A DNA stretch of 64,000 bases from assembly GCA_026706595.1 (NCBI GenBank), contig JAPOYL010000009.1, forward strand, positions 22,687-86,686. Direction: 5' to 3'. Positions 2-21,120 of the stretch are shown one piece after another. The notes below the pieces were generated by a model, which did not search any database, had not been told where the DNA came from, and saw nothing but the letters and a program-made list of their open reading frames with translations. The stretch's first letter is position 1; every line of letters begins with the position of its first letter. The DNA comes from Gammaproteobacteria bacterium (lineage in GTDB: Bacteria > Pseudomonadota > Gammaproteobacteria > UBA4575). The position numbers were made by a program, and so were the translations under genes.

Positions 2-3000
2 ACAGCCAAACTCCCTGATCGGGGTGTGATTGTAGCCCGCGGCCCCGCCCGGGTGCATGAAGCTCCGGGCATGTGGGTTCTGATGGCGGATGAGGGCGGG
101 ACCGCTGCACATCTAGCGCACGAGCTTGCAGACCGCAATCAGACGGTGGTGCTGGCAGGCCCCGGTTTTGACAAGGCTGCCGAATTCAAGGTGTGCGGCC
201 CCGGCGTGCATGAGGTGTACGTGGATGCGATGATGCGCGAGTCTTGGCAGCAACTTGTGGAGCACTTGCCAGGTGATTTGCCCTTCAGCGGGGTGGTGCA
301 TTTCGCAGGACTCGACGGGCATGGCATGCAGGCGAGTACTGCGGAAATTGCAGGAGATGTCGAGCGCAACGGGGCGAGCGCGCTGGCCCTGGTGCAGGGT
401 GTGGCCGATTCGGTCCGTGAGCCTGACAAGGGCATCTGGTTGATCACGCGGGGGGCGCAGATTCTGGAGCGAGAGCGCGGCGGGGAACTCGCCGGTGCGA
501 TCCTGTGGGGCTTCGGCAAGGCCGTGGACCGCGAGGCGGCGCACCTGCGCCCGCAGATGATCGACCTCGACCCGCAACCCGAAGCCTCATTGCCCGATCT
601 GGCCAATGAACTGCTGTATCCCGATGCCGAAAACCACATTGCCTATCGCCTGGGTCGACGGCAGGTGGCGCGCCTGGTCCGCTTTGCGGACGGCCCAGCG
701 CGCTTGGCACTGCCGAAGACGCCGGACTGGGTGCTGGCACCGGACCCGGGCGGCACATTCGATCGCCCCTGCGTGCAGTCCCTTGCCGCGCGCGCGCTGG
801 AACCCAGGGAGGTGCGTGTCGAAGTCGATGCGGCAGGTCTGAACTTCTGGGATGTTTTCCGCTCCCTCGGGTTCATAGAGGAGGGACTGCTCGGCCGGGA
901 GATGTGCGGGCGTGTCATCGAGGCTGGCTCCGAGGTGAGCAGCGCGATTGTCGGCAAGCGCGTAATAGGACTTGGTTTCGGCGCCTTCGGTCCGCAGATG
1001 GTCACGCGAGAGGAACTTGTCTCTGTTGCCCCTTCGGGGTATTCGGTCACCGAACTTGCGACGGTGCCGAGCGCGTATGTCTCCGCAGCACTCTCCTATG
1101 AACTTTCCGGACTGCAGGCCGGCGAGCGCGTATTGATTCATGCCGGTGCCGGCGGGGTTGGCCTTGCGGCCATCCAGCTTGCCCAGGCCGCAGGGGCCGA
1201 GGTGCTGGCAACGGCAAGCATGCCCAAGCAGGCGTACCTCAGATCACTGGGGGTCGTGCATCTGTTTGACAGCCGCACGACGGCCTTCGGGGAGCAGATC
1301 CTCGAAGTGACCGGCGGAGCCGGCGTGGACGTGGTGCTGAACAGCCTGACGAGCGAAGGATTTATCGATGCCAGCCTGTCCTGTTTGCGCCAGGGAGGCC
1401 GGTTCGTGGAACTGGCCCGCAGGGACATCCTGAGCCCAGAGGAGATGGCAGCGGTGCGCCCGGATGTGGGTTATGACATCCTGGAGCTCGATGTCCTGAA
1501 AAAGACGGATCCGGCATGGGTCGGGCGGGTGCTGGACGATGTTACGAGGCAGCTCGCTTCAGGCGAAATCGGGCCGATCGTGCACAGCCGGTGGCCTCTG
1601 GCTGAAGCGGGAGCTGCCCTGCGGTTCATGCGGTCTGCCCGGCATCTGGGAAAGATTGTTGTCACGGCACCGCCGCTGGCGACAGGCCGGCTGCGCCAGG
1701 ACGCCACCTACCTTGTAACCGGTGGCCTGGGCGGGATCGGCATTGCCGTGGCCGACTGGCTGGTCGGGCAGGGTGCCGGGACCCTCGTGCTGAATGGGCG
1801 CCGCAGCCCGGATGCCGAGGCCGAGGCCGCGATCCGGGAGCTTCGCGAACGCGGGGCATCGATCCACGTGGAGATTGCGGACGTGACAGATGCCTCGGCG
1901 ATGGACCGGATGATGTCGCACATCGACCAGGAACTGCCACCTCTGGCCGGTGTGATTCATAGCGTCGGGGTGCTGTCGGACGGGGCACTGACAAATCAGA
2001 GCTGGGAGCGATTCGAACGGGTACTGGGGCCGAAGATCCTGGGTGCCTGGCACCTGCATCGCTCGACTCTGGATCGTGACCTCGATTTTTTCATTCTTTT
2101 TTCAAGCCGCGTGGGCGTGATGGGGAATCCAGGCCAGGCGAACCACGCCGCAGCCAATGCCTTTCTGGACCAGTTGGCCGGCCATCGGCGCGCCCTGGGG
2201 CTTGCCGGACAGGCGATTGCCTGGGGCGCATGGTCCGAGATCGGCGAAGCTGCAGAACAAAAAGACCGCATCGAACGCCAGCGCTCTGCACTGGGTGGAC
2301 GCTGGTTCACCCCGCAGCAAGGTCTCAAGGCCCTTGAACGGCTGGTGCGCCAGGATGTTACGACCTCCGTGGTGATGTCGATGGACTGGTCGGTGTTCGA
2401 GAAGGCCGTCAGTGCGCGACCTCCGTTTCTTGAGGAGATGCTTGTGACAGACGACGAGGCCGAAGCCGGTGCTGTGGCCTCGTCGGCCGATGTGATGGCC
2501 CGGCTGCAGCAAACCCCAGCCTCTGAACGGGGCCGCCTGCTGGAGTCGTATCTGCAGGGGGAGGTACAGGCGGTGCTGCGCCTGCCTTCGGCTCCGGAGC
2601 CCGCCGTCGGTTTTTTCGATCTCGGTATGGATTCGCTGATGGCCGTAGAACTGCGAAACCGCCTGAACCGGGCCTTCTCGGATGAGTACACTGCCTCCAA
2701 CACGGTGGTGTTCGATTACCCGGACATCATCTCGCTGGCCCGCCACCTGTCCGAGGAACTGGGCGAAGTCAAAGGGACCCCCGCGCCTCAGGTCCAGCCT
2801 GCCCCGGTGTCCGTATCCGAAGATGCATCGATCGAGGGGGGCATTGCGATCATCGGCATGGCCTGCCGGTTCCCGGGTGCCCGCAATCTTGCCGAATTCT
2901 GGCAGGTGCTCGATGAGGGGCGCGAAACCGTGAGTGACGGGCGCGAGGACACCGGTTTATGGGGTGGGGTGCTGGGGGATCCTGCAATACGCGATGCTGG

Positions 3001-4684
3001 CTACCAGCGTGGCGGGTTCATTGAGGGTATCGATCACTTCGATGCACGCTTTTTCGGCATCCGGCCGATTGAGGCACACAGCATGGACCCACAGCAACGG
3101 ATGCTGCTCGAGACGAGCTGGCAGGCACTCGAGGATGCCGGCATTGATCCTGAGCAGTTGCGGGGCAGTCCCACCGGGGTCTATGCCGGAATTGCTTCCA
3201 GCGAATACCGGGACCTGATGATGGACAGTGGTGGCCCCAGCTATCTCGGCACGGCAGGGAGCATGGCGGTCGGGCGTGTCTCGTTTTGCCTGGGCCTGGA
3301 GGGACCGGCCATGCCGGTCATGCTCAACTGCGCTTCATCTTTGGTCGCCATACATCATGCCGTAGCGAGCTTGCTCCAGGGCGAGGTGGACCTGGCGCTG
3401 GCCGGCGGAGTCAACGCGATCCTTTCGAGTGGGCTGACCCGTGAACTTGCCGAACTCGGAATGCTGTCGCGTGATGGACGATGCAAGACGTTCAATGCCT
3501 CGGCGGACGGGTTTGTACGCAGTGAAGGTTGTGGAATGATCGTCCTCAAGCGTCTTGATGAGGCGCAGGCAGATTGCGATCGAATCTGGGGCGTGATCCG
3601 CGGCTCGGCCATCAACCACAGCGGGGCGAGTGCAGGGCCTACAGTGCCGACGGGTCCGACGAAGGAACGGGTCATCGAGGAGGCGCTTGCCGGAGCATGT
3701 ATCTCACCGCACGAAGTGGACTATCTCGAGGCGCACGGAGGCGGTTCGGAGCTGGGTGATTCCATTGAAGTCAATGCTTCTGCGAGGGTCTACGGGCGCG
3801 AGCGGGAGGCGGACGATCCCCTGTTGATCGGTTCGGTGAAGACGAACCTCGGACATCTGGAATCCGCTGCCGGCATTGCGGCGCTCATCAAGACGGTGCT
3901 GGCAATGGATCGGCACAGGATTCCGCAACACCTGCATTTTCGTGACCCGAACCCGCACACGGACTGGGAGCAGTTGCCGGTGAAAGTGGTTTCTGAGGCC
4001 ATGGACTGGCCTCGGCATGAGGGTCGACCTGCGCGTGCAGGGGTCAGCGCATTCGGAATCTCCGGAACCAATGCCCACGTGGTGGTCGAAGGGTATCAGG
4101 CGTCGGAGGATGCCTCGTACCCAGAGCATCCGCGATCTTCTCCCGCAGGAAATGCACAACTGGTGACGTTGCCCCCGTCGGATTCATCCCGGGAGACCCC
4201 CTCTGAAATACCTGCAACCGACTTGCGAAAGACCCGCCTGTTGCCGCTTTCTGGCAAGTCTGAAGGCGTTCTCAGGGAACTGGCCGAAGCGTATCTTGCC
4301 TGGCTCGATGCACACTCGAAGGAGCTTTCGGATGATGACAGTGCATCCGGCCCCCTGCTTTCGGATATGGCATGGACGGCCAGTACGGGACGCGCCCACT
4401 TCGCTCATCGGGCCGGTGTCCTGTTCAGTGACGTGGCCTCGCTCCGGGCTCAACTTCAGTCACTTGCCAGGGGCACTGGCAAAGAGGTGCCCGCAGCGGC
4501 AGCGAAGGAAAACTCCCATGATGTGCAGACGGATGAAGTGCCTTCCTTCATGCTGGAAGTTGCAGAAGCCTACGAGGCAGGGCAAGCGGTTTCGCTCGCA
4601 GGTCTTTTTGAAGGCGAGATGCGAAGGCGAATTTCTGTGCCGGACTATCCATTCGAACGGCAGAGGTTTTGGGTCAAGGCCTAA
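2..4684 (+). CDS. Type I polyketide synthase, 5'-truncated at the window edge. Domains: psiKR/ER (~713-1661), KR (~1706-2276), ACP (~2540-2770), KS (~2846-4110), then an AT-less post-KS linker to the stop.
   Basis: The reading frame is open from nt 2. The ER region is quinone-oxidoreductase-like (GxGxxG in 'HAGAGGVGLAAIQ'). The KR Rossmann motif is 'TGGLGGIGIAVADWL'. The ACP Ser motif is 'LGMDSLMAVELRNRL'. The KS has Cys in 'NCASSLVAIHHA', 'EAHGGGSELGD' and 'KTNLGHLESAAG'. The C-terminus ends with the 'YPFERQRFW' linker motif. No acyltransferase GHSxG domain follows. Confidence 0.85.
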   Translation, partial: TAKLPDRGVIVARGPARVHEAPGMWVLMADEGGTAAHLAHELADRNQTVVLAGPGFDKAAEFKVCGPGVHEVYVDAMMRESWQQLVEHLPGDLPFSGVVHFAGLDGHGMQASTAEIAGDVERNGASALALVQGVADSVREPDKGIWLITRGAQILERERGGELAGAILWGFGKAVDREAAHLRPQMIDLDPQPEASLPDLANELLYPDAENHIAYRLGRRQVARLVRFADGPARLALPKTPDWVLAPDPGGTFDRPCVQSLAARALEPREVRVEVDAAGLNFWDVFRSLGFIEEGLLGREMCGRVIEAGSEVSSAIVGKRVIGLGFGAFGPQMVTREELVSVAPSGYSVTELATVPSAYVSAALSYELSGLQAGERVLIHAGAGGVGLAAIQLAQAAGAEVLATASMPKQAYLRSLGVVHLFDSRTTAFGEQILEVTGGAGVDVVLNSLTSEGFIDASLSCLRQGGRFVELARRDILSPEEMAAVRPDVGYDILELDVLKKTDPAWVGRVLDDVTRQLASGEIGPIVHSRWPLAEAGAALRFMRSARHLGKIVVTAPPLATGRLRQDATYLVTGGLGGIGIAVADWLVGQGAGTLVLNGRRSPDAEAEAAIRELRERGASIHVEIADVTDASAMDRMMSHIDQELPPLAGVIHSVGVLSDGALTNQSWERFERVLGPKILGAWHLHRSTLDRDLDFFILFSSRVGVMGNPGQANHAAANAFLDQLAGHRRALGLAGQAIAWGAWSEIGEAAEQKDRIERQRSALGGRWFTPQQGLKALERLVRQDVTTSVVMSMDWSVFEKAVSARPPFLEEMLVTDDEAEAGAVASSADVMARLQQTPASERGRLLESYLQGEVQAVLRLPSAPEPAVGFFDLGMDSLMAVELRNRLNRAFSDEYTASNTVVFDYPDIISLARHLSEELGEVKGTPAPQVQPAPVSVSEDASIEGGIAIIGMACRFPGARNLAEFWQVLDEGRETVSDGREDTGLWGGVLGDPAIRDAGYQRGGFIEGIDHFDARFFGIRPIEAHSMDPQQRMLLETSWQALEDAGIDPEQLRGSPTGVYAGIASSEYRDLMMDSGGPSYLGTAGSMAVGRVSFCLGLEGPAMPVMLNCASSLVAIHHAVASLLQGEVDLALAGGVNAILSSGLTRELAELGMLSRDGRCKTFNASADGFVRSEGCGMIVLKRLDEAQADCDRIWGVIRGSAINHSGASAGPTVPTGPTKERVIEEALAGACISPHEVDYLEAHGGGSELGDSIEVNASARVYGREREADDPLLIGSVKTNLGHLESAAGIAALIKTVLAMDRHRIPQHLHFRDPNPHTDWEQLPVKVVSEAMDWPRHEGRPARAGVSAFGISGTNAHVVVEGYQASEDASYPEHPRSSPAGNAQLVTLPPSDSSRETPSEIPATDLRKTRLLPLSGKSEGVLRELAEAYLAWLDAHSKELSDDDSASGPLLSDMAWTASTGRAHFAHRAGVLFSDVASLRAQLQSLARGTGKEVPAAAAKENSHDVQTDEVPSFMLEVAEAYEAGQAVSLAGLFEGEMRRRISVPDYPFERQRFWVKA

Positions 4685-4738
4685 CGCACTTCGCGATCAC
4701 GGGTCTGTTTTGACGAGTTGTGGGTACCACAGCCGCCT

Positions 4739-5635
4739 TCAGGCGTCGGGCAACTGTTGCTGTTCCTGGAATTCTCGCACCGCTGATACACAGTCCACCG
4801 GCTTTTCCAGTTGAAGAAGGTGTGTGGTCTCAGGGATGAAATCATAATCGACAGTCAGGACGTCGCTGAGATCGAACGTCGGCAGATAGGCATACGGCAA
4901 GGTCGGGTCCGCGCCGATGACCTTCGTCGGACACGGGAGCGTTTCAAAATCCACCAGCGGGGAAAAGCTGCGGACATAATCGGTGATCTGGGCTTCGTAT
5001 TCGCGTGGGCAGCGCAACTCATACCCCAACCCGTCGGGAACCTCGCGAAGCGTAGTCTTGGCCATGAGCTCCCGGACCCCGGGAACCACATGGGTGAAGG
5101 TCGGGATGTAGCTCAGGAAATCAGAAAATTCTTCCTCTGTCTGGAATCGGTATCCACGTCGGCGCGTCAGCGATGCAGCGTGTTCGGCAGCTACGTCAAA
5201 TTCGGTCTGGCTGGCACCAGGCTTGCATACGGGCGGGTCGAAAAGAATCTGTGCCGAGCAGCTGTTGTCCTGCGGTGCCGTCAGCAGCGAGATCAGCGCC
5301 GCGACGGAGTGTAATACCCCGATCTTGGGCTTGTTGCCATAGTGGCGGTCGATGGATTCCAGTATCAGGGCATAATCCTGTATCAGCACGGGCACGTTGT
5401 GATCGCGGCGTTCGCCCACGGAATTCCAGCCATGGTTTCTAAGGTCGTAGAGGATCAGCTCAAAGTCCTCGGCAAGCAGCGACCAGAACGGGTAGTACAG
5501 GTCAATGGCGAGACCGTTGCCATGACACAGCACGAGTCGAGGCCCGGACGGATTGCCGTGCTGTCGCAAGAGCGTGACTGTATTTTTATCCAGCCGGACT
5601 TCACACACTGAGATTGGTTCAGGAATTTCCCACAT
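4739..5635 (-). CDS. Alpha/beta-fold hydrolase, a candidate thioesterase or release enzyme for the adjacent PKS
   Basis: A 298-aa ORF with an oxyanion-hole 'LVLCHGNG' and nucleophile-elbow-like 'GVLHSVAA'. It is convergent with the PKS gene. Confidence 0.6.
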   Translation of the reverse strand: MWEIPEPISVCEVRLDKNTVTLLRQHGNPSGPRLVLCHGNGLAIDLYYPFWSLLAEDFELILYDLRNHGWNSVGERRDHNVPVLIQDYALILESIDRHYGNKPKIGVLHSVAALISLLTAPQDNSCSAQILFDPPVCKPGASQTEFDVAAEHAASLTRRRGYRFQTEEEFSDFLSYIPTFTHVVPGVRELMAKTTLREVPDGLGYELRCPREYEAQITDYVRSFSPLVDFETLPCPTKVIGADPTLPYAYLPTFDLSDVLTVDYDFIPETTHLLQLEKPVDCVSAVREFQEQQQLPDA

Positions 5636-5719
5636 GATCCTTATGAGGCAGGTCGCATTCTCGTTTTATCAGGTTCAAAAGACCGGACCGAATCGCTTGG
5701 TTCGTTTTCCGGGGCGGCA

Positions 5720-6457
5720 TCACACCGGGTTAAGTTCATGTGCCAGGGCTGCGGCAAAATTCGGGTCATCCAGGGATTCAAGCCACCACCGGACTTGCGG
5801 CAGCTGAGGGAAGCAGAATTCGCCTGCATTCATCTCCTGGCGCAGGGTTTTCGGAATTTCGATTCCTGACATGTCCAGCGAGAATCCCGTACCCAGTGCC
5901 TTGAGCAATGCTTCTTTCATCGTCCACAGGCGGAAAAACAAGTGGATTTTCTGCGGGCCGTGGGTCGCAGCAAGGTCCTCACGCTCGTTCGGGGTAAATA
6001 CCGACTGAATATCTTCATCCAGGTTCTGTTGCATGTTCCGTTCTTCCACGTCCACTCCGACACGTCCATGCAGGGCAAGCGCTACCAGCCCGTGCTGGTG
6101 GCTGTGGCTGACGTTGAAACCGATGCCCTCTTGTTCTCCATCCACCAGGGCATGGGGTTTTCCGTATTTCGATGTCCCAAAGGCGAGTTGTTCGTTGCGG
6201 CAGTCGAGATGTTTGCAGAGAATCGCACGCAATGCTGCACGGCACAAGCTGAATTCATACCGGGCACGGACATGGCGAAACCGGTGCCAACGTGCCTGTT
6301 CCTCGGAATCCAGCCACTCCAGCGCCTCGGCCTCACGAGTGTTGTGAGGCCGCAGGTCCACATGAAAAATTGTGGTATCCCGGGTTTTCCTGTACGGATG
6401 CCACCAGTCATTTGTTGCGGTGGCCAATTCCTTGTGCGTGCTCACCTTCAGGGGCAC
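5720..6457 (-). CDS. 4'-phosphopantetheinyl transferase, Sfp/EntD type
   Basis: PPTase signature motifs are present: 'GKPHAL', 'GFNVSHSHQHGLVA', 'GVDVEE' and 'WTMKEALLKALGTG'. Confidence 0.85.
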   Translation of the reverse strand: MPLKVSTHKELATATNDWWHPYRKTRDTTIFHVDLRPHNTREAEALEWLDSEEQARWHRFRHVRARYEFSLCRAALRAILCKHLDCRNEQLAFGTSKYGKPHALVDGEQEGIGFNVSHSHQHGLVALALHGRVGVDVEERNMQQNLDEDIQSVFTPNEREDLAATHGPQKIHLFFRLWTMKEALLKALGTGFSLDMSGIEIPKTLRQEMNAGEFCFPQLPQVRWWLESLDDPNFAAALAHELNPV

Positions 6458-6597
6458 AGGGTCGAGTCACGTTGTACGGTGCCCCGATTGTCCATGACCA
6501 TCGCAGTGTCTGCGTTTGTCCCGGCCTGGGAACTAGGGCACACGTGCACCACGATATCCGGATGCAGTTCTGCCTACATCCCTGAACCGGAAAAGGT

Positions 6598-6828
6598 TTA
6601 CCCGGAGTTTGAATCCAGATAGGCGGCCAGTTCCCGCAGAGACTGGAACTGGGAGAAGTCTTCAGGAGGGACTGTCACTCCGAATTCCTGGCTGACCTTC
6701 TTGATGAAGGCGACGGCATCCACAGAGGACACACCAGAGTCACCAAAGCGGGTGTCCATATCCGGTTCCCTGCCAGTATCCAGATTTTCATTTGCTAGTG
6801 CCATGAGGCGGTCTTCTGTTGAGGACAT
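6598..6828 (-). CDS. Stand-alone acyl carrier protein (PP-binding)
   Basis: A 76-aa acidic protein with 'FGDSGVSSVDAVAFIKKV', adjacent to the PPTase. Confidence 0.65.
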   Translation of the reverse strand: MSSTEDRLMALANENLDTGREPDMDTRFGDSGVSSVDAVAFIKKVSQEFGVTVPPEDFSQFQSLRELAAYLDSNSG

Positions 6829-7325
6829 GATGAGATTCTCCTGATTGTTTTAGTTGGTTTTTGGTGTAGACAGACCGGTATTTTAGGTGCAGGCACGTTT
6901 TCAGACAAGGGCGAGTGTAAGTCGCCAGTGATCCTGGGCGGGCATGCCACGGAATCGATCCTGGACGCGACCACTGGTCGTATACGGTTCTTAGGGTATG
7001 CGTTCGGAATTACTGCATCTTTTTGTGCGCATTTTTGAACGGATGTTGCCGGACTGCGTCTATACCTGTATAGGTTACTGTCGCTTCCCGAGAGCACCTG
7101 TCCGTGTCATGACTTGTCTGGGGCTTTCACTTACAATGACAGAACAGGAAACTGCCTGGGTCGGGGAGCGCAGTCCATCTGAATTGATTTGTCAAGATTG
7201 GCGGGAGTCCGTATGTCTGTACCGGTGAATGAGGAAGGAAGCCATACGGCTTCGGCCGACCGTCCGGTCCGGGTTCCTGCCGCAGGCGCAATGATGTCAG
7301 GCGGTCGCTTTCCCCTACAGGGCTC

Positions 7326-9770
7326 ATGGCCTATTTCCTGAAGCTTTTGCGCCTTGCGCTGGGGGCTTTTCTTGCCATCATTGTGGCAGTACTCGCCACC
7401 TACATATACCTGGCACCTTCCCTGCCGGGGGTGGCTGTGCTCAGGGACGTGGAACTGCAGGTGCCGCTCAAGGTGTACAGCCGGGACGGCAAGCTGATTG
7501 CCGTGTATGGAGAGCAAAGGCGTGAACCCCTGGGGGTGGATGAGATCCCGGAATTGCTGGTCCAGGCATTTCTTGCCGCAGAGGATGACCGCTTTTACGA
7601 GCACCTGGGGGTCGATTATCAGGGCCTGGCCCGTGCTGCGCTTTATGTATTGCTGACCGGAGAAAAACGACAGGGTGGCAGTACCGTCACGATGCAGCTG
7701 GCCCGGAACTTCTTTCTGGACAATGAGCGTACCTACCGACGCAAACTCAAGGAAATTTTCCTGGCTCTCAGGATCGAGCACGAGTTCAACAAAAACGAAA
7801 TCCTCGAGCTGTACCTGAACAAGATCTACCTGGGGAACCGGGCCTACGGTGTGGGTGCAGCGGCCGAGGTCTATTACGGGCGCAGCGTGCATGATCTGAA
7901 TCTTGCACAGATCGCCATGATTGCAGGATTGCCCAAGGCCCCTTCGAGGTTTAACCCGATCGTCAACCCCGAGCGTGCCGTCATTCGCCGCAATTACGTG
8001 CTCGGCAGAATGCACAAGCTTGAATTCATTGATGATGACGCCTATCACAAGATGCTGGATGAGCCGGTGAGCGCATCGGTCCACTACCCGAGGGTCGAGA
8101 TGAATGCCCCGTACATTGGAGAGATGGCACGCGCGCAGATGTTCGGGGAATACGGGGCCGAGGCCTATACCAAGGGCTACCGCGTGTACACGACGATCAA
8201 CAGCAAACTCCAGCGCCAGGCCCAACTGGCCTTGAGAAATGGATTGCACGCCTACGATCGGCGACATGGCTGGCGGGGTGCGGAGTCCCATCTGGAACTG
8301 GAGTTCACAGGCGATGACGTGGACCAGATCGCGTTTGAAAAGCTGGATGAGGTGATACTGGACATGGACCTGATCGGAGGGTTGATGCCGGCCGTGGTGA
8401 CCCGGGTGGAGCCCCTGGAGATCGAGGCGTATCTGGGTGAGCAGCAGTTTGCCGTGGTTTCGATCGACCAGGCCAAGTGGGCCAGGCCCTATATCAGCGA
8501 AAATACCATGGGGGAGGCACCGGAAGACTTCACCGGAGTGCTTGCACCGGGGGATGTGATCCGGATCACCCGAGCAGGTACTGGCGAGTGGGCACTGAGC
8601 CAGGTTCCCGAGGCGGCCGGGGCCTTCGTCGCGATCGACCCTCAAAACGGCAGTGTGCTGGCTCTGGTCGGCGGGTACGATTACCTGCACAGCAAATTCA
8701 ATCGCGTCACCCAGGCGAAACGTCAGCCCGGCTCAAGTTTCAAGCCGTTCATCTATTCAGCCGCACTTGAGTCAGGCTTCACGCCTGCCAGTATCATCAA
8801 CGATGCACCGGTGGTGCATGATGGCAGTGGCCTGGAGAGTGCCTGGCGCCCGAAAAATTACAGCGGCAAGTTTTTCGGACCGACCCGTCTTCGCGAGGCC
8901 CTGGTGAAGTCCCGCAACATGGTTTCAATCCGTGTGCTGCGAAGCGTGGGCCACCGTTACACCGAGCAGCACATCACCAACTTTGGTTTTGGCCCGGAGC
9001 AACTGCCCCAGGGCTTGTCCCTGGCACTGGGTTCCGGTGTAGCGACGCCTATGGAGATGGCTCGAGGCTATGCTGTGTTTGCCAATGGCGGTCACTATGT
9101 CGAACCGTTCGTGATCGAAAGGATCGAAGACGTCAGGGGTGAAGTTCTGTTTCGCTCCAGTCCCCTGATGGTATGCGAGGCAGACTGTCTGGACTTGCAG
9201 CAACAGCTGTATAGCAGCGGCGAGGAAATCATCGGCGAGGACGGGGCAGCAGAGCTGGGCATGCGGGTCGCAGAGCGCGTGCTGCCCAAGGAGAACGCCT
9301 ATCAGATGGTAAGCATGATGCATGATGTCATACAGAGTGGCACCGGCAGGCGCGCGCGCCAGCTGGGGCGCAGTGATCTTGCGGGTAAAACGGGCACGAC
9401 AAACGAACAGAGGGATGCATGGTTCTGTGGTTTCAATGGTGATATCGTGGCAATTGCCTGGGTGGGGTTTGATCAGCACAAACCGCTCGGACGCAAGGAA
9501 GTTGGGAGTGTCACGGCGTTACCGATATGGATCGAATTCATGCGTGCCGCCCTTCAGGGCAAGCCGGAGAACAAACTGAAGCGACCGGAGACGATTGTCA
9601 GTGTGCGCATCGACCCTGCCACTGGACAACGGGTGGATTCGGGTAATGAGCAGGGTATCGATGAGACCTTCCGTATGGGGTATGTTCCGGCCGAAGGCTC
9701 CGGACCCGGCACACCGCCGGCATATCCGCGAAATGACGGGGGGATGGGAACTCCAGAACAGCTTTTTTGA
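7326..9770 (+). CDS. mrcA: Penicillin-binding protein 1A (bifunctional transglycosylase/transpeptidase)
   Basis: An N-terminal TM helix. Glycosyltransferase motifs 'EDDRFYEH' and 'GGSTVTMQLARNFF'. Transpeptidase 'SSFKPF', 'SRN' and 'KTGTT'. Confidence 0.9.
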   Translation: MAYFLKLLRLALGAFLAIIVAVLATYIYLAPSLPGVAVLRDVELQVPLKVYSRDGKLIAVYGEQRREPLGVDEIPELLVQAFLAAEDDRFYEHLGVDYQGLARAALYVLLTGEKRQGGSTVTMQLARNFFLDNERTYRRKLKEIFLALRIEHEFNKNEILELYLNKIYLGNRAYGVGAAAEVYYGRSVHDLNLAQIAMIAGLPKAPSRFNPIVNPERAVIRRNYVLGRMHKLEFIDDDAYHKMLDEPVSASVHYPRVEMNAPYIGEMARAQMFGEYGAEAYTKGYRVYTTINSKLQRQAQLALRNGLHAYDRRHGWRGAESHLELEFTGDDVDQIAFEKLDEVILDMDLIGGLMPAVVTRVEPLEIEAYLGEQQFAVVSIDQAKWARPYISENTMGEAPEDFTGVLAPGDVIRITRAGTGEWALSQVPEAAGAFVAIDPQNGSVLALVGGYDYLHSKFNRVTQAKRQPGSSFKPFIYSAALESGFTPASIINDAPVVHDGSGLESAWRPKNYSGKFFGPTRLREALVKSRNMVSIRVLRSVGHRYTEQHITNFGFGPEQLPQGLSLALGSGVATPMEMARGYAVFANGGHYVEPFVIERIEDVRGEVLFRSSPLMVCEADCLDLQQQLYSSGEEIIGEDGAAELGMRVAERVLPKENAYQMVSMMHDVIQSGTGRRARQLGRSDLAGKTGTTNEQRDAWFCGFNGDIVAIAWVGFDQHKPLGRKEVGSVTALPIWIEFMRAALQGKPENKLKRPETIVSVRIDPATGQRVDSGNEQGIDETFRMGYVPAEGSGPGTPPAYPRNDGGMGTPEQLF

Positions 9771-16568: not shown

Positions 16569-17432
16569 TCAGCTAGCGACTGCAGCCTTAAGCGCCTGGA
16601 TGGCGTTGCTTTCCAACTGGCGTATGCGCTCTGCCGAAACCTTGTACTTGGCAGCCAGGTCCTGCAGGGTGGAGCGCTTCTCACTCAACCAGCGCTGCGT
16701 GATGATGTCCCGGCTACGCTCATCCAGCACGGTCAGTGCGGCTTGCAGTTGCCGTACCTGATGGGATTCCCAGTCCTCATGTTCAATCTGCAGTTCAGGG
16801 TTGTCTTCTTCATGGCTTAGGTAGGCCGCCGGTGCAAAGTGACCGGGCTCATCCTTGTGCTCATCATGATCCTGGTCAAAACCGAGGTCGTGACTGCTGA
16901 GCCGCTTTTCCATCTCCACCACTTCACTGCGCTTGACGCCCAGTTCCTTGGCTACCGTATCCACCTCATCCTGATTCAGCCAGGCCAGGCGTTTCTTGGA
17001 GTTGCGCAAGTTGAAAAACAGCTTGCGCTGGGCCTTGGTGGTTGCAACTTTGACAATGCGCCAGTTGCGCAGTACGAACTCATGAATCTCGGCACGAATC
17101 CAGTGCACCGCAAACGAGACCAGGCGCACACCCTTGTGCGGGTTGAAGCGGTTGACGGCCTTCATCAGCCCGACATTGCCTTCCTGGACCAGATCCGCAA
17201 GCGGCAGACCATATCCCAGGTAGCCGCGCGCCACATGAATCACGAACCGCAGGTTGTGAATGATCAGAGTGCGTGCCGCATCCAGATCGTTATCTTCATA
17301 CAGGCGCAGCGCCAGGGCATGCTCCTCTTCCATGCTCAGCACCGGAATCTGCAGCGTCGAGGCGATGTAGCCGTCCAGGTTGGCGGTGGAAATCGCCGTT
17401 GAAGCTTGCAAGGGTTGTATGGTGGTCGTCAC
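16569..17432 (-). CDS. rpoH: RNA polymerase sigma-32 (heat-shock sigma factor)
   Basis: RpoH box 'QRKLFFNLR', region 2 'LIIHNLRFVIHVARGY', and a GTG start preceded by a GGAGAA RBS. Confidence 0.93.
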   Translation of the reverse strand: MTTTIQPLQASTAISTANLDGYIASTLQIPVLSMEEEHALALRLYEDNDLDAARTLIIHNLRFVIHVARGYLGYGLPLADLVQEGNVGLMKAVNRFNPHKGVRLVSFAVHWIRAEIHEFVLRNWRIVKVATTKAQRKLFFNLRNSKKRLAWLNQDEVDTVAKELGVKRSEVVEMEKRLSSHDLGFDQDHDEHKDEPGHFAPAAYLSHEEDNPELQIEHEDWESHQVRQLQAALTVLDERSRDIITQRWLSEKRSTLQDLAAKYKVSAERIRQLESNAIQALKAAVAS

Positions 17433-17486
17433 AGTTCTCTGGTTCTCCCCAGTTGGAGCGTTTGTTCAATCTTCATCAGGGCTATA

Positions 17487-17513
17487 TTAGCACTCTTTTA
17501 TATAGAGTGCTAA
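17487..17513. promoter_or_regulatory. CIRCE operator (HrcA-binding inverted repeat) upstream of rpoH
   Basis: An exact TTAGCACTC-N9-GAGTGCTAA, 55 bp upstream of the rpoH GTG. Confidence 0.8.
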
Positions 17514-17516
17514 TAT

Positions 17517-17524
17517 TTTTAGTT
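17517..17524. repeat. Target-site duplication, left copy (TTTTAGTT)
   Basis: An identical octamer lies immediately outside both inverted repeats (the other copy is at 21113..21120). Confidence 0.75.
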
Positions 17525-17550
17525 GGGGCTTATATACGTAAGTTACCGGA
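17525..17550. repeat. Left terminal inverted repeat GGGGCTTATATACGTAAGTTACCGGA
   Basis: Matches the reverse complement of 21087..21112. Subterminal partial copies occur at 17735..17745 and 17786..17795. Confidence 0.75.
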
Positions 17551-17935
17551 TTCTGAGCAGTTTTCCCTACCTGAACTCGGGTTCCATGCTGTCGCCCAGG
17601 ACGCGCAGGGCAAACGGTTCCGAATTGGCGCACCCGCCATGATCGGCGAGGTCAGCCTGTAGACCGCGAACAAGTACTGCCATCGTATCCGGACCCTCGG
17701 TGCCTCATTAAAAAATTTTATCAATAATTTTTTGTTTATAAGCTCTGGGTATTCTTGGGGCATTTGGAAAAAATACTAAGATTTCAAGCTTATATGATTT
17801 TGCCCACTTCTTGTGTTCGGAGTCTGGCATCCACACAATCCATTGTGTACAATCACTGCCATACGCATTGCGTAATCGACCAACAAAAAGCGAGGAAAAC
17901 GTCATGGAGCAAATGATTCAAAGTGAGGTGGAAAA

Positions 17936-18044
17936 GCGCCGGTAGCTAAAGAGGCATAAGCACATACTGGCGTGGCGTTCAATTCCCGTCAGGCATGGTC
18001 GTAGCACTAGCTGCGTGCCGGTTCGAGTCCGGTCCGGCGCACCA
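17936..18044 (+). other. tRNA/tmRNA 3'-end-like element (T-arm GGTTCGAGTCC, 7-nt acceptor strand, discriminator A, CCA); not a complete tRNA
   Basis: The T-stem-loop 18017..18033 and acceptor 3' strand 18034..18040 could pair with GCGCCGG at 17936..17942. The 109-nt span cannot be folded into a canonical cloverleaf. Confidence 0.3.
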
Positions 18045-18077
18045 TCTTACAAAAATTCAAATCTGAACGAAGACACA

Positions 18078-18218
18078 TCAAGTCTTCTTTCTTTTCCCAG
18101 CAGCAAAGATCGCCTTTGCTACATATTCAGGACTTTCATCAATCTTCAGAACACGGGTTTTCGGTCTGCCACGTGGCAGTTTTTCCTGTGCAGTCTTCTT
18201 TGGATTAGTCTTACCCAT
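18078..18218 (-). CDS. AT-hook micro-protein (46 aa), paralog 1
   Basis: '...LPRGRPKTRVLKIDESPEYVAKAIFAAGKRKKT'. It shares the RGRP...SPE(Y/N)(V/I)AKAI(F/M) core with 18774..18965. Confidence 0.5.
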   Translation of the reverse strand: MGKTNPKKTAQEKLPRGRPKTRVLKIDESPEYVAKAIFAAGKRKKT

Positions 18219-18320
18219 TAAAAAGAAGTATAGGGTTTTAGTCTGTGTTAGTAAATTGGCTAATTGATTGGCATCGCATGATTATCTATGCTTGTCTATA
18301 GTTTCCTACTAGGACATAAA

Positions 18321-18515
18321 ATGGATAAAAGTAATTTAAATAATCTAGATGGTGAGTTGAACGCTCTAGCTGATTTCATAGTCAACTTTGTCGGAGTCTC
18401 AGGTCTAAAAATTCAAATGATCCAAAAGCTCAAATCTGGCTTAACGAAAGATGTTAAAGGTACAGACTATGAAGCTAGGTTGCAGTATTTCATAAAACAA
18501 TTAGAAAAACTCTGA
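18321..18515 (+). CDS. Hypothetical small helical protein
   Basis: An ORF in AT-rich cargo DNA with no recognisable motif. Confidence 0.25.
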   Translation: MDKSNLNNLDGELNALADFIVNFVGVSGLKIQMIQKLKSGLTKDVKGTDYEARLQYFIKQLEKL

Positions 18516-18773
18516 CGCATCTTATTTGGGAAATATAAAGATTAGGGGTTTATATACTTGTTTACCTATCGGACTAATGCTTCTGGGATCTTTCCCACAC
18601 AACTCCTTCTTTTCTACAAATCCTTTTAATGTCTCTTCCTTTCATCTGTAAAAAATGCACTCCTTCCTTTTGTTTTTAATATTGCCAATAATTCGCTATT
18701 AAGTTATTTCCATAGTGATTACCACTTCAACTGTATCTTCTGGACTATAAGTTTCTTCCACAAGTTTCTCCTT

Positions 18774-18965
18774 TCAATCCTCTTTCAGATAATCCCAGTC
18801 TTTCTTCGGAGACCCCTTCATAATTGCCTTGGCAATGTTCTCCGGGCTGTCTGGCACTTTAGGAGGCATTTTCTTGGTCACAGGCCGACCCCGCTTGTGA
18901 GCCTTTACCTTCAATGTCTTTTTGCCTTTAACCTGCTTCATCTCTATACTTTCCTCTAACGACAT
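18774..18965 (-). CDS. AT-hook micro-protein (63 aa), paralog 2
   Basis: '...KAHKRGRPVTKKMPPKVPDSPENIAKAIMKG...'. It is Lys-rich. Confidence 0.55.
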   Translation of the reverse strand: MSLEESIEMKQVKGKKTLKVKAHKRGRPVTKKMPPKVPDSPENIAKAIMKGSPKKDWDYLKED

Positions 18966-19124
18966 TCATGTAGATACCCTGGTCGGGTTATCTGCTTAAT
19001 ACAATAGCCATTTACGCATCAGGGTAGCTCCCTGATGTTTGGTAAAGAGGCGGAACCTCTCCGTACTTCTACGTGGATGTCGTATGACCCGGCACCATGC
19101 ACGTAACAAAAAGGAGAGGTGGTC

Positions 19125-19424
19125 ATGCGTTCTTTCAATATTCTCGTCATTTCAATTCTCATAAGCGGGTGTGCTACTAGCAATTATTTCGTTGCCACTG
19201 GCAGTCGCGCGGATGGAACGGTTGAGGTGGCCTGCAACTACGACATGTTTAATATTTGCAAACACGATGGGAGTCCCAATGGATCCAGCGCAGCCGGTCA
19301 AGCTTGCCGAAGTTGGGGATATGACGGTGCCCGCTCTTTTGGAGGTTATACCAACCAACCTAGATATGACGGTACAGGCCAGGTAAGAATCCTGTACCAG
19401 TGTTATGGTGATCCTGAGAAGTAA
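19125..19424 (+). CDS. Small lipoprotein (Cys-rich, about 100 aa)
   Basis: Signal peptide plus lipobox 'LISGC', with an AAGGAGAG RBS 8 nt upstream of the ATG. Confidence 0.6.
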   Translation: MRSFNILVISILISGCATSNYFVATGSRADGTVEVACNYDMFNICKHDGSPNGSSAAGQACRSWGYDGARSFGGYTNQPRYDGTGQVRILYQCYGDPEK

Positions 19425-19434
19425 GGGGAGAAAC

Positions 19435-19608
19435 ATGGAATACATCATCCCTTACCTTTTTGCCTTTGGCCTTTGTGGTTTGCTGGCTTTTGCAATACAG
19501 GGAGAAAATTCTGAAGGGAAAGGATTAGCCTTTGCCTTGGGATTTCTGTTTGGACCTTTAGGAATTCTCATTGTGTTGATCACGAAACTAGCAAAGACAA
19601 AGAAATAA
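19435..19608 (+). CDS. Two-helix mini membrane protein (57 aa)
   Basis: 'MEYIIPYLFAFGLCGLLAFAIQG...GFLFGPLGILIVLITKLAKTKK'. An AGGGGAG RBS follows immediately after the lipoprotein stop. Confidence 0.5.
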   Translation: MEYIIPYLFAFGLCGLLAFAIQGENSEGKGLAFALGFLFGPLGILIVLITKLAKTKK

Positions 19609-19657
19609 AAACTCATGCCACTCTGATAACATAGCCAAAATTAATTAGGAAATCTTG

Positions 19658-19987
19658 ATGACAGAAAATCCCTCAAAACCCCAATCAGTTCGAGCTCAAA
19701 AGCATGCTGCTTCTCCAGAACATTCTGAAAGTCGACTTCGACATGTGAAGGGATTTGATTTGTATCAGGCAGACAATACAGAGTCCTATGTCCTAGATTT
19801 TCACTTTCATACTTTACAGAATTATCCTGCAGACGAAATGACAACCCTTGTGGGAGATCATTTTCCTCAAATTTTGGAAAGGAAGGATCTTCAGAAGCTT
19901 GCCTATAAAATTCTAAAGACATTGCGAGAAGAGCTTCAAGCTCCTGTCGAGAAGTGGAACGATGATATTGATTCCTTGAAGATTTAA
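19658..19987 (+). CDS. Hypothetical protein (about 109 aa). A fully overlapping 133-aa antisense ORF (19641..20042) is an alternative.
   Basis: An AGGAAA RBS lies 7 nt upstream of the ATG. The call is ambiguous between strands. Confidence 0.35.
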   Translation: MTENPSKPQSVRAQKHAASPEHSESRLRHVKGFDLYQADNTESYVLDFHFHTLQNYPADEMTTLVGDHFPQILERKDLQKLAYKILKTLREELQAPVEKWNDDIDSLKI

Positions 19988-20022
19988 AGGATTCAAAATT
20001 AATAATATTGTTGTTATTCACC

Positions 20023-20958
20023 CTAAGACACCAATTCCTCATACTTCAACCGCTTGCCTTCCATGCGCTTGGCAACAAACGCCATCTGGCGGATTGTATC
20101 CAGCTCCCTGATATTGAAGCGTCCTGCGAACTCCTGCACATAGCGATTCAGGTGCTTTTTGCTGATGTGATGATACGTGCCGTGGTACCCACGCTTGAGT
20201 AGTGCCCAGAAGGACTCGATGCCGTTGGTGTGGGCCATGCCCCTCACAAACTCACTGGTAGAATGTCGGACGGCCCTGTGGTCATAGCGTTTGTATAGTT
20301 GCATGTAAGCCCGATTATCGTCTGTGATCAGTGTGGCCTCTGGGTCCATGTTCTCGGCAATAAACTTGTGCAGCGTGTACGCCGTGGTGTCTTCGGCAGT
20401 CTTGGCCCGAATCTCTTTACTGTCTCTGCACTTCATACCGACCACAATTGCCTTGTCCGTAGCTCCTCGTCCCTTGAGAGTCTTGCGCTTGGCATTGTGC
20501 ATGTTCTTTCGCTTTCCACCCATGTAGGTCTCATCCACTTCCACAGTGCCTCGCAGAAGCCCATCGCCTTCATCAAAGGCCTCCCGAATGCGTTGTAGCA
20601 TGTACCAGGCTGACTTCTGGGTTATTCCGAGTTCCCGACTCAGCTTCATGCTGGAAATGCCCTTGAGATTAGTGGTCGCCATGTAGATCGCGATCACCCA
20701 GTGTTGGAGCTTGATCTTGGAACCTTCCATGACCGACCCTTTTTTGACGCTGAAGAATTGCCGGCAATCACGGCAGCGATAACGCATGGTCTTGTGGGTC
20801 GTATGGGTGTGGTTGACAGACCCGCAATCAGGACAGACCGGACCATCAGGCCAACGCTGCTCCTCAAGCCATTGCTCAGCAGTCCTGTCATCAGGGAACA
20901 TCTGAAGCAGCTCAATGATTGTAATCCCTTTCCGGTGTGACTTGCCTGGACCTGCCAT
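20023..20958 (-). CDS. IS1595-family (ISXO2-like) DDE transposase
   Basis: An N-terminal zinc ribbon 'PDGPVCPDCGS...YRCRDCRQFFSV', then 'KGISSMKLSRELGITQKSAWYMLQRIR' and a DDE domain (311 aa). Confidence 0.85.
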   Translation of the reverse strand: MAGPGKSHRKGITIIELLQMFPDDRTAEQWLEEQRWPDGPVCPDCGSVNHTHTTHKTMRYRCRDCRQFFSVKKGSVMEGSKIKLQHWVIAIYMATTNLKGISSMKLSRELGITQKSAWYMLQRIREAFDEGDGLLRGTVEVDETYMGGKRKNMHNAKRKTLKGRGATDKAIVVGMKCRDSKEIRAKTAEDTTAYTLHKFIAENMDPEATLITDDNRAYMQLYKRYDHRAVRHSTSEFVRGMAHTNGIESFWALLKRGYHGTYHHISKKHLNRYVQEFAGRFNIRELDTIRQMAFVAKRMEGKRLKYEELVS

Positions 20959-21086
20959 TCCTACATCTTGATCAGTTGATTATTCATGGTAACTATTCTA
21001 CCGGAAAACAGTGCGAAAGTAAAGGGTTTACCGATAGAAATATATATTACGATAGGTATATCCTATGTAGGCTGTTAGAAAAGACT

Positions 21087-21112
21087 CTCGGTAACTTTTG
21101 TATATAAGCTCC
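21087..21112. repeat. Right terminal inverted repeat (reverse complement GGAGCTTATATACAAAAGTTACCGAG)
   Basis: See the left inverted repeat. Confidence 0.75.
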
Positions 21113-21120
21113 TTTTAGTT
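21113..21120. repeat. Target-site duplication, right copy (TTTTAGTT)
   Basis: See the left copy. Confidence 0.75.

Follow-up and report, generated by a model that had tools for sequence, protein, structure and literature searches.

A positionally fixed micro-gene is the conserved second gene of an IS1595 transposon subclade and may encode a nucleic-acid-binding accessory factor

The DNA analyzed here (the window: 64,000 nucleotides (nt) of contig JAPOYL010000009.1, assembly GCA_026706595.1, from a Gammaproteobacteria bacterium) contains an IS1595-type transposable element with two small, related open reading frames (ORFs), ORF1 and ORF2. Both are real genes of an unnamed micro-protein family, and the micro-gene was found to be a conserved, positionally fixed second gene, at the transposase-distal end, of one monophyletic IS1595 subclade. 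Judged from sequence, the micro-protein would be an element-encoded nucleic-acid-binding accessory factor that modulates transposition, a reading to which we assign a probability of roughly 0.55.

The two ORFs had been reported in a preliminary description of this DNA, made from its letters alone, and were recovered at the same coordinates and on the same strand, both with intact reading frames:

18078 to 18218, minus strand: micro-protein ORF1, 46 amino acids (aa), short type without the PPKK..WDYL tail
18774 to 18965, minus strand: micro-protein ORF2, 63 aa as the longest ORF, long type with a PPKKDWDYL tail

For ORF2, the second ATG at 18941, giving 55 aa, is the likelier start because GAGGAAAG is found 7 nt upstream of it and the public call is also of 55 aa; protein P0001, 100% identical to the 55-aa form, is NCBI MCY3803181.1, a 'hypothetical protein' from a gammaproteobacterial metagenome-assembled genome (MAG). 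A promoter-like TTTACT-17-TATACT at 18255 to 18227, identified by consensus match only, ends 9 nt ahead of the ORF1 ATG. The core common to both proteins (RGRP, 8–10 residues, [DE]SPE[YN][VI]AKAI), as described previously, was confirmed by BLASTP (14/31 identities, E = 2e-6, in one single comparison), and in a six-frame regular-expression scan of the 64 kb it occurred at ORF1 and ORF2 only. On its own this E-value fails correction for all small-ORF pairs in the window, and the matter is settled by external homologues. The same conserved residues are encoded by differing synonymous codons in the two ORFs. Both proteins are Lys-rich, as had been claimed, with isoelectric points (pI) of 10.2–10.6; the GC content of the ORFs themselves was measured at 44–48%, and not at the 35–40% given earlier.

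Homologues of ORF2 reach E = 1.8e-13 and those of ORF1 reach 1.6e-7. With a 13-sequence profile, an exhaustive protein search of 1.84 billion representatives (clusters at 50% identity) returned 777 clusters with E ≤ 1e-3, of which 111 have E ≤ 1e-10; the matches are almost without exception 45–90 aa long. A word-indexed search with the same profile gave at least 2258 proteins at E ≤ 1 among 8000 candidates. A homology search with the core had been named beforehand as a check, and homologues thus proved widespread. Source names for family members were 'hypothetical protein' only, and no Pfam, NCBIfam or PHROG family was found for ORF1, ORF2 or the members scanned, apart from sub-threshold matches to DUF6890 and AT_hook. 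A 13-codon core was compared among its 65 distinct DNA versions: per-site differences between pairs averaged 0.20, 0.08 and 0.55 at the first, second and third codon positions, respectively, with 11562 synonymous against 5695 non-synonymous codon differences. A Shine–Dalgarno-like 4-mer lies ahead of an in-frame ATG in 46/63 loci, compared with 18/63 for random positions, and the frame stays open across elements with transposases only 47% identical. Because of the external homologues, the differing synonymous codons and the third-position variation, ORF1 and ORF2 can be regarded as real genes; the earlier view that they are paralogues and not chance ORFs stands, both being conserved members of a family with an invariant (R)GRP motif.

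According to PMC8101967, members of the IS1595 family have one transposase gene and produce 8-bp target duplications; the family includes cargo-carrying 'transporter IS' forms (Siguier, Gagnevin & Chandler 2009, as relayed in PMC8101967 and PMC12561309). From a genome profile scan, 80 loci were kept of 163 relatives; eight context loci were added to give 88 for repeat analysis. A match to the IS1595 transposase hidden Markov model was present within 6 kb of the micro-gene in 60 of the 80 loci and absent from 20, so that conservation in other IS1595-type elements, likewise named beforehand as a check, was borne out. The transposase gene was upstream of and co-oriented with the micro-gene in 50 loci, downstream and convergent in six, and otherwise arranged in four. 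In 37/88 loci a correctly oriented GG..TTATATAC repeat had its outermost base no more than 64 nt from the micro-gene stop; in 10 more the distance was 200–540 nt, as for ORF2 of the window, and in two loci the stop overlaps the terminal inverted repeat. In the elements at L004 (3803 to 6173) and L005 (3734 to 6178), for example, the stop is 7 and 15 nt from the distal repeat, respectively, and the gap in L006 is 12 nt.

Perfect 8-bp target duplications bound 27 elements, including that of the window, with sizes of 1471–7972 bp. The 1471-bp form, present at three different target sites (L018, at 4717 to 6187, L019 and L021), consists of transposase gene and micro-gene only, and when the window element was compared with all other loci the transposase gene and the micro-genes alone were conserved. 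Variable cargo is located between these two genes. Even in cargo-free elements the micro-gene lies at least 215 nt from the transposase stop, and its place beside the repeat is the same in elements where it is inverted. Identity between micro-proteins correlates with that between transposases (Mantel rho 0.53, 0/999 permutations). In a neighbour-joining tree that included a transposase-side sample of 80 metagenome loci at 35–55% identity, 46 of 49 micro-linked transposases fell into one clade of 52 leaves; the other six leaves were L094, which has a divergent micro-like ORF, and five contigs that end before the distal end. About 70 transposases placed outside this clade lack a micro-gene. The plasmid-borne IS1595 transposases nearest in sequence (42–45% identical) gave no clean repeats with the repeat finder and were unusable as comparators.

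The micro-gene is accordingly not the transposon cargo that it had been taken for: it is kept in 1471-bp elements without other genes and co-varies with the transposase. Like other IS1595 elements, that of the window has a DDE_Tnp_IS1595 domain with a Zn ribbon, terminal repeats and an 8-bp duplication. Whereas the typical IS1595 element has one transposase gene (PMC8101967), a second conserved gene occurs throughout the micro subclade, with cargo between the two, and the subclade is therefore a two-gene variant of IS1595 rather than a typical one. No account of the micro-gene, of an IS1595 accessory gene or of IS AT-hook proteins was found in the searchable literature, ISfinder and the original 2009 description lying outside that search.

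The proteins follow a common plan, in which a basic N-terminus is followed by (P/K/R)RGRP, an extended Pro-rich linker of about 10 residues (MPxPIP) and D-[TS]-P-E-N-[IV]-A-[KR]-A-[IL], the last representing a D-[TS]-P-E cap and one amphipathic helix; most members then end with a PPKK..W.YL tail. Among 120 members, G18, R19, P20 and one Ala are invariant, and R17, the P..IPDTPEN.RA block, PPK and W-D-Y-.-K are each at least 90% conserved. Since the ORF1 type lacks the PPKK..W.YL tail, the minimal common module appears to be a basic arm with RGRP and one helix; P0168 is intermediate between the short and long types. AlphaFold2, run with 120 sequences, predicted a single helix at residues 33–42 (PENIAKAIMK) and no globular fold, with a mean predicted local distance difference test (pLDDT) score of 71 and values of 85–88 over residues 21–40. 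A PDB profile search with the family gave nothing meaningful.

The preliminary description had labeled both proteins as AT-hook proteins. The central tripeptide of the AT-hook is present in both window ORFs within RGRP, and the N-terminal flank of the core is basic in nearly all members (KK, KR, RP), so that the micro-protein resembles the HMGA-type AT-hook (PF02178) in having an (R)GRP core, often PRGRP, after basic residues. It differs in its score and appears to differ in its C-terminal flank, which is V/A/K-T/E-x-x, with lysines in some members only. No match to Pfam AT_hook was obtained for ORF1 or ORF2 at E ≤ 1, nor for the 120 members scanned at E ≤ 10, and one further locus-derived member reached 8.3 bits, compared with a cut-off of 17.4. 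The label is thus retained at the level of the motif, and not at that of the Pfam threshold.

The GRPR minor-groove arm of the Hin/Gin invertases and the Tc1/mariner transposases provides a second comparison for RGRP. In Hin the arm is followed by an α-helix a few residues on, as in the micro-protein; Hin/Gin and Tc1/mariner possess a helix-turn-helix, whereas the micro-protein has one helix only. The AT-hook, Hin and Tc1 motifs also sit inside larger DNA-binding proteins, and the micro-protein is free-standing, at 45–70 aa. A weak likeness to DUF6890 (PF21830; uncharacterised, its profile spanning 44 positions) was seen over PDTPENIARAIM..PPKKEWDY in 7/120 members, at profile positions 10–33; the best match (E = 0.048, 13.8 bits) is below the cut-off of 23.6 and neither window protein matches. 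A relationship between the two families is conceivable.

Among the roles offered in the preliminary description, that of a transposition accessory factor appears to fit best. DNA binding is suggested by the invariant GRP, the conserved R17, the high pI and the lack of a globular fold. By analogy with an AT-hook or the Hin GRPR arm, the RGRP arm would enter the minor groove of AT-rich DNA. Both termini have an invariant TTATATAC box, and the TTATATA box there, the one invariant AT-rich patch in elements otherwise of 50–65% GC, is the candidate site. The helix and tail would be docked on DNA or on the transposase, and either the expression of the transposase or the synapsis of the ends would thereby be modulated. 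The micro-protein is more likely to be a regulator that the element can do without than a cofactor that it requires, because sister lineages that share these termini transpose in the absence of the micro-gene. A more specific proposal, that a peptide of ~45 aa with an AT-hook and one helix, made beside the transposase-distal end, binds the TTATATA box, or the transposase there, and so sets the rate of transposition of elements spread over at least 10 phyla, is offered as tentative.

A TTGAC(A/G) box was observed ~30–36 nt inside the transposase-proximal end in L018, L029, L042, L045, L068 and others. It looks like the −35 element of a transposase promoter, and since the TTATATA box lies about 20 nt outside it on the transposase side, this box would then be at an UP-element-like position.

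Several observations weigh against an accessory factor that binds nucleic acid. The family does not reach the Pfam AT_hook threshold (best score 8.3 against 17.4 bits), and the residues after RGRP, V/A-T/E, are unlike the basic run of canonical AT-hooks. Both TTATATAC termini and AT-rich 8-bp targets are also found in micro-less relatives (L098, L113, L115, L116, L117, L123, L140 and L151), the AT content of the target duplications being 69% in micro-bearing elements and 75% in micro-less ones. Since these sister lineages share termini and targets, the micro-protein cannot specify either feature, and the micro-gene was ruled out as their cause. Lastly, a micro-like ORF beside the distal repeat of L094 (4418 to 4579) keeps the SPEDVRAALM helix (...EASPEDVRAALMRP...) and lacks GRP, VRVRP replacing RGRP, and is acidic overall. 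Either this is a decaying copy, or the helix rather than the hook is the essential part.

The L094 ORF, with its helix kept without GRP, leaves room for a role in which the micro-protein acts on the transposase, the peptide inhibiting, stabilising or chaperoning it, e.g. for copy-number control, and RGRP serving as a protein interface. An extended Pro-rich segment and amphipathic helix, predicted at fairly high local confidence but with no fold of their own, would suit a peptide folded by its partner, and both the co-variation of micro-protein and transposase sequences and the conserved aromatic W.YL tail are in keeping with such contact. ORF1-type proteins, however, lack that tail and keep RGRP and its basic flanks, GRP is invariant in the 120 members and the pI is very high, and we consider this explanation unlikely as the main one.

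Alternatively, the micro-gene could confer a passenger benefit unrelated to transposition, as an anti-defence or host-interaction peptide, for example, its place at the end reflecting that cargo is tolerated in mid-element only. Sister lineages do transpose without it, and genes of defence or anti-defence type (DNA methylases, HNH, SocA/Panacea, a STAND NTPase) are frequent among the cargo. Yet no gene other than it and the transposase gene is retained throughout, 1471-bp copies included, it follows the transposase phylogeny as a single clade, and its place beside the repeat is retained in either orientation, all of which make a mere passenger improbable.

A xenogeneic silencer or counter-silencer, also raised in the preliminary description, would coat the AT-rich DNA of the element or displace H-NS-like proteins. 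Lsr2 and H-NS likewise contact the minor groove through a motif of the RGR type, and the window element is of lower GC than its host. This idea fared poorly, and we regard it as very improbable: the silencers H-NS, Lsr2, MvaT and Rok combine an oligomerisation domain with a C-terminal DNA-binding domain, whereas the micro-protein has 45–70 aa, one predicted 10-residue helix, no oligomerisation domain and no Pfam H-NS/Lsr2 match. The elements average 54% GC, against about 60% for their flanks, with many above 55% and several at 60–65%, and cargo-free elements retain the micro-gene. The hosts also span many phyla, for some of which we know of no described H-NS-type silencer. That the ORFs arose by chance over conserved cis-acting subterminal DNA, with no protein made, could be entertained on the ground that the micro-gene lies directly against the terminal repeat, in a region expected to hold binding sites for the transposase, and is effectively refuted by the strong three-base periodicity of substitution, the ~2:1 excess of synonymous changes, the frame kept open between distant elements and the enriched Shine–Dalgarno-like motifs.

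IS1 is the family most closely related to IS1595. The InsA protein of IS1 and OrfA of IS911 resemble the micro-protein in being small, basic and element-encoded and in being proposed to act at the ends or promoter. They represent the N-terminal DNA-binding part of the transposase, made without frameshift and encoded transposase-proximally, whereas the micro-protein, whose gene lies at the opposite end, has no sequence in common with the transposase and matches neither a Zn ribbon nor a helix-turn-helix.

Merlin elements are the eukaryotic relatives of IS1595, and to our knowledge no accessory factor is known for IS1595/Merlin transposons. If the proposed function is correct, the micro-protein would be the first dedicated accessory protein reported for transposons of this type, which have been described as single-gene elements (PMC8101967), and would be among the smallest sequence-directed DNA-binding regulators known. 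The 1.5-kb elements would offer a minimal two-gene system for studying control of a DDE transposase by a peptide of ~50 aa. Since cargo falls between the transposase gene and the micro-gene, the latter is a simple marker by which such elements can be annotated and delimited. The family is also an example of a widespread micro-protein family, with hundreds of clusters in many phyla, left unnamed by gene callers and domain databases, and through its elements DNA methylases, HNH nucleases and further cargo of defence type are moved from one uncultured bacterium to another.

In the window, a lower-GC insert separates rpoH (16569 to 17432, minus strand) from ftsX/ftsE/ftsY (from 21261, minus strand). 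Because of its bounding 24-nt inverted repeats, perfect 8-bp direct repeat and IS1595 transposase, 17525 to 21112 (3588 bp) is a single transposed unit that entered between ftsX and rpoH, and the earlier placement of both ORFs inside an IS1595-type element was upheld. The GC content of the whole element is 44.8%, compared with 57.2% for the rest of the window. In addition to ORF1 and ORF2, the following features were identified:

17517 to 17524: target-site duplication, left copy TTTTAGTT, 8 bp, read directly and confirmed by script
17525 to 17548, plus strand: outer terminal inverted repeat, transposase-distal, GGGGCTTATATACGTAAGTTACCG; 24-nt pair, 88% complementary
17708 to 17905, minus strand: 65-aa ORF without homologues or match in related loci; cargo or possibly no gene
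17936 to 18044, plus strand: tRNA-like gene, cargo (Rfam tRNA, 32.9 bits, E = 6.5e-4)
18288 to 18515, plus strand: 75-aa ORF without homologues; cargo or possibly no gene
18545 to 18567, plus strand: internal third repeat copy GGGGTTTATATACTTGTTTACC, end of a nested L005-like remnant
19119 to 19424, plus strand: YecR-like lipoprotein, cargo (Pfam YecR, E = 2.9e-8)
19405 to 19608, plus strand: 67-aa membrane-like ORF, cargo (PHROG membrane protein, E = 0.0019)
19641 to 20042, minus strand: 133-aa cargo ORF without family match
20023 to 20958, minus strand: IS1595-family transposase, 311 aa (Pfam DDE_Tnp_IS1595, 4e-41; Zn_ribbon_IS1595, 4.3e-11)
21089 to 21112, minus strand: transposase-proximal terminal inverted repeat, reverse complement GGAGCTTATATACAAAAGTTACCG
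21113 to 21120: target-site duplication, right copy TTTTAGTT, 8 bp

The distal repeat fits the family consensus GGGnnTTATATAC-N4/5-TTACC. Read from the transposase end, the order is proximal repeat, transposase, 133-aa ORF, YecR-like and membrane ORFs (on the other strand) and ORF2, followed by the repeat at 18545, the 75-aa ORF, ORF1, the tRNA-like gene, the 65-aa ORF and the distal repeat.

The presence of two micro-genes in one element is best accounted for by nesting. The transposases closest to that of the window come from L008 (68% identical) and L004 (65%), which are the two elements carrying ORF1-type micro-genes; identity to transposases paired with ORF2-type proteins is only ~55%. 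The proximal repeat GGAGCTTATATACAAAAGTTACCGAG is almost the same as the L008 repeat. Both outer repeats of the window element are of the five-base spacer form, and the internal repeat at 18545–18567 is of the four-base spacer form, as in L005, whose micro-protein P0002 is the closest relative of ORF2 (79% identical). Because of these transposase identities, spacer forms and the L005 micro-protein, ORF1 is the cognate micro-gene of the window element, and ORF2 and the internal repeat are what is left of one end of a second, L005-like element that lies nested within it. Local duplication in situ was ruled out, the copies coming from two IS lineages as indicated by transposase and repeats. The composite then moved as a unit by its outer repeats, as the position of the target duplication, just outside 17525 and 21112, shows. 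Two tandem distal repeats, separated by 119 nt, are likewise present in L008.

Directly outside the element, a hairpin with a 13-bp stem (17484–17516, plus strand) is followed by TTTTAGTT; the insertion point is the T-tract of this terminator-like hairpin between ftsX and rpoH, and the target is AT-rich, like the 8-bp duplications of the other elements examined. The tRNA-like gene lies 33 nt from the ORF1 stop, on the opposite strand. Its acceptor, D and T arms are intact, and the anticodon/variable region is enlarged by 39 nt that fold into a pair of hairpins; ARAGORN made no tRNA call at 17936 to 18044. In L004, the other ORF1-type element, a tRNA-Gly with the unusual anticodon ACC occurs at 3949–4023, between the repeat and the transposase gene, and tRNA-like cargo may be recurrent in the ORF1-type lineage.

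Family hosts, as MAGs (loci L009–L088), include Alphaproteobacteria, Acidobacteriota, Chloroflexota, Spirochaetia, Latescibacterota, Gemmatimonadota, Binatia, Rhodothermales and others, often with two or three copies of the micro-gene per genome. The host names Ca. Spongiisocius and COS3_bin suggest marine sponge microbiomes; no relevant literature on IS1595 in sponges was found. No relatives were detected in PLSDB plasmids by tblastn or in IMG/VR by scanning. Among 44 cargo ORFs tested, six matched N6/N4 DNA methylases, some fused to HNH nucleases, and others MT-A70, SocA/Panacea, RhuM, a dCTP-deaminase-like protein and a STAND NTPase, by which the cargo (L011, L013, L027, L035 and others) was classed as rich in defence or anti-defence-type genes.

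Two loci showed contact with other mobile elements. L024 holds two copies (1830–3237 and 6175–7583) of a 1409-bp element from a different IS1595 subgroup, with repeats TCCTGATTCCCTA.., one 321-aa transposase, no micro-gene and no TTATATAC box, and one of the two interrupts the distal repeat belonging to a micro-type element. In L001–L003 (6001–6204), P0008 is encoded 300 nt downstream of an IS4/IS5-type DDE_Tnp_1 transposase, near resolvase and TniQ/TniB/Mu-type transposition genes, with a TTATATAC repeat 540 nt further on; this locus looks like an IS1595-type remnant broken up by other mobile elements.

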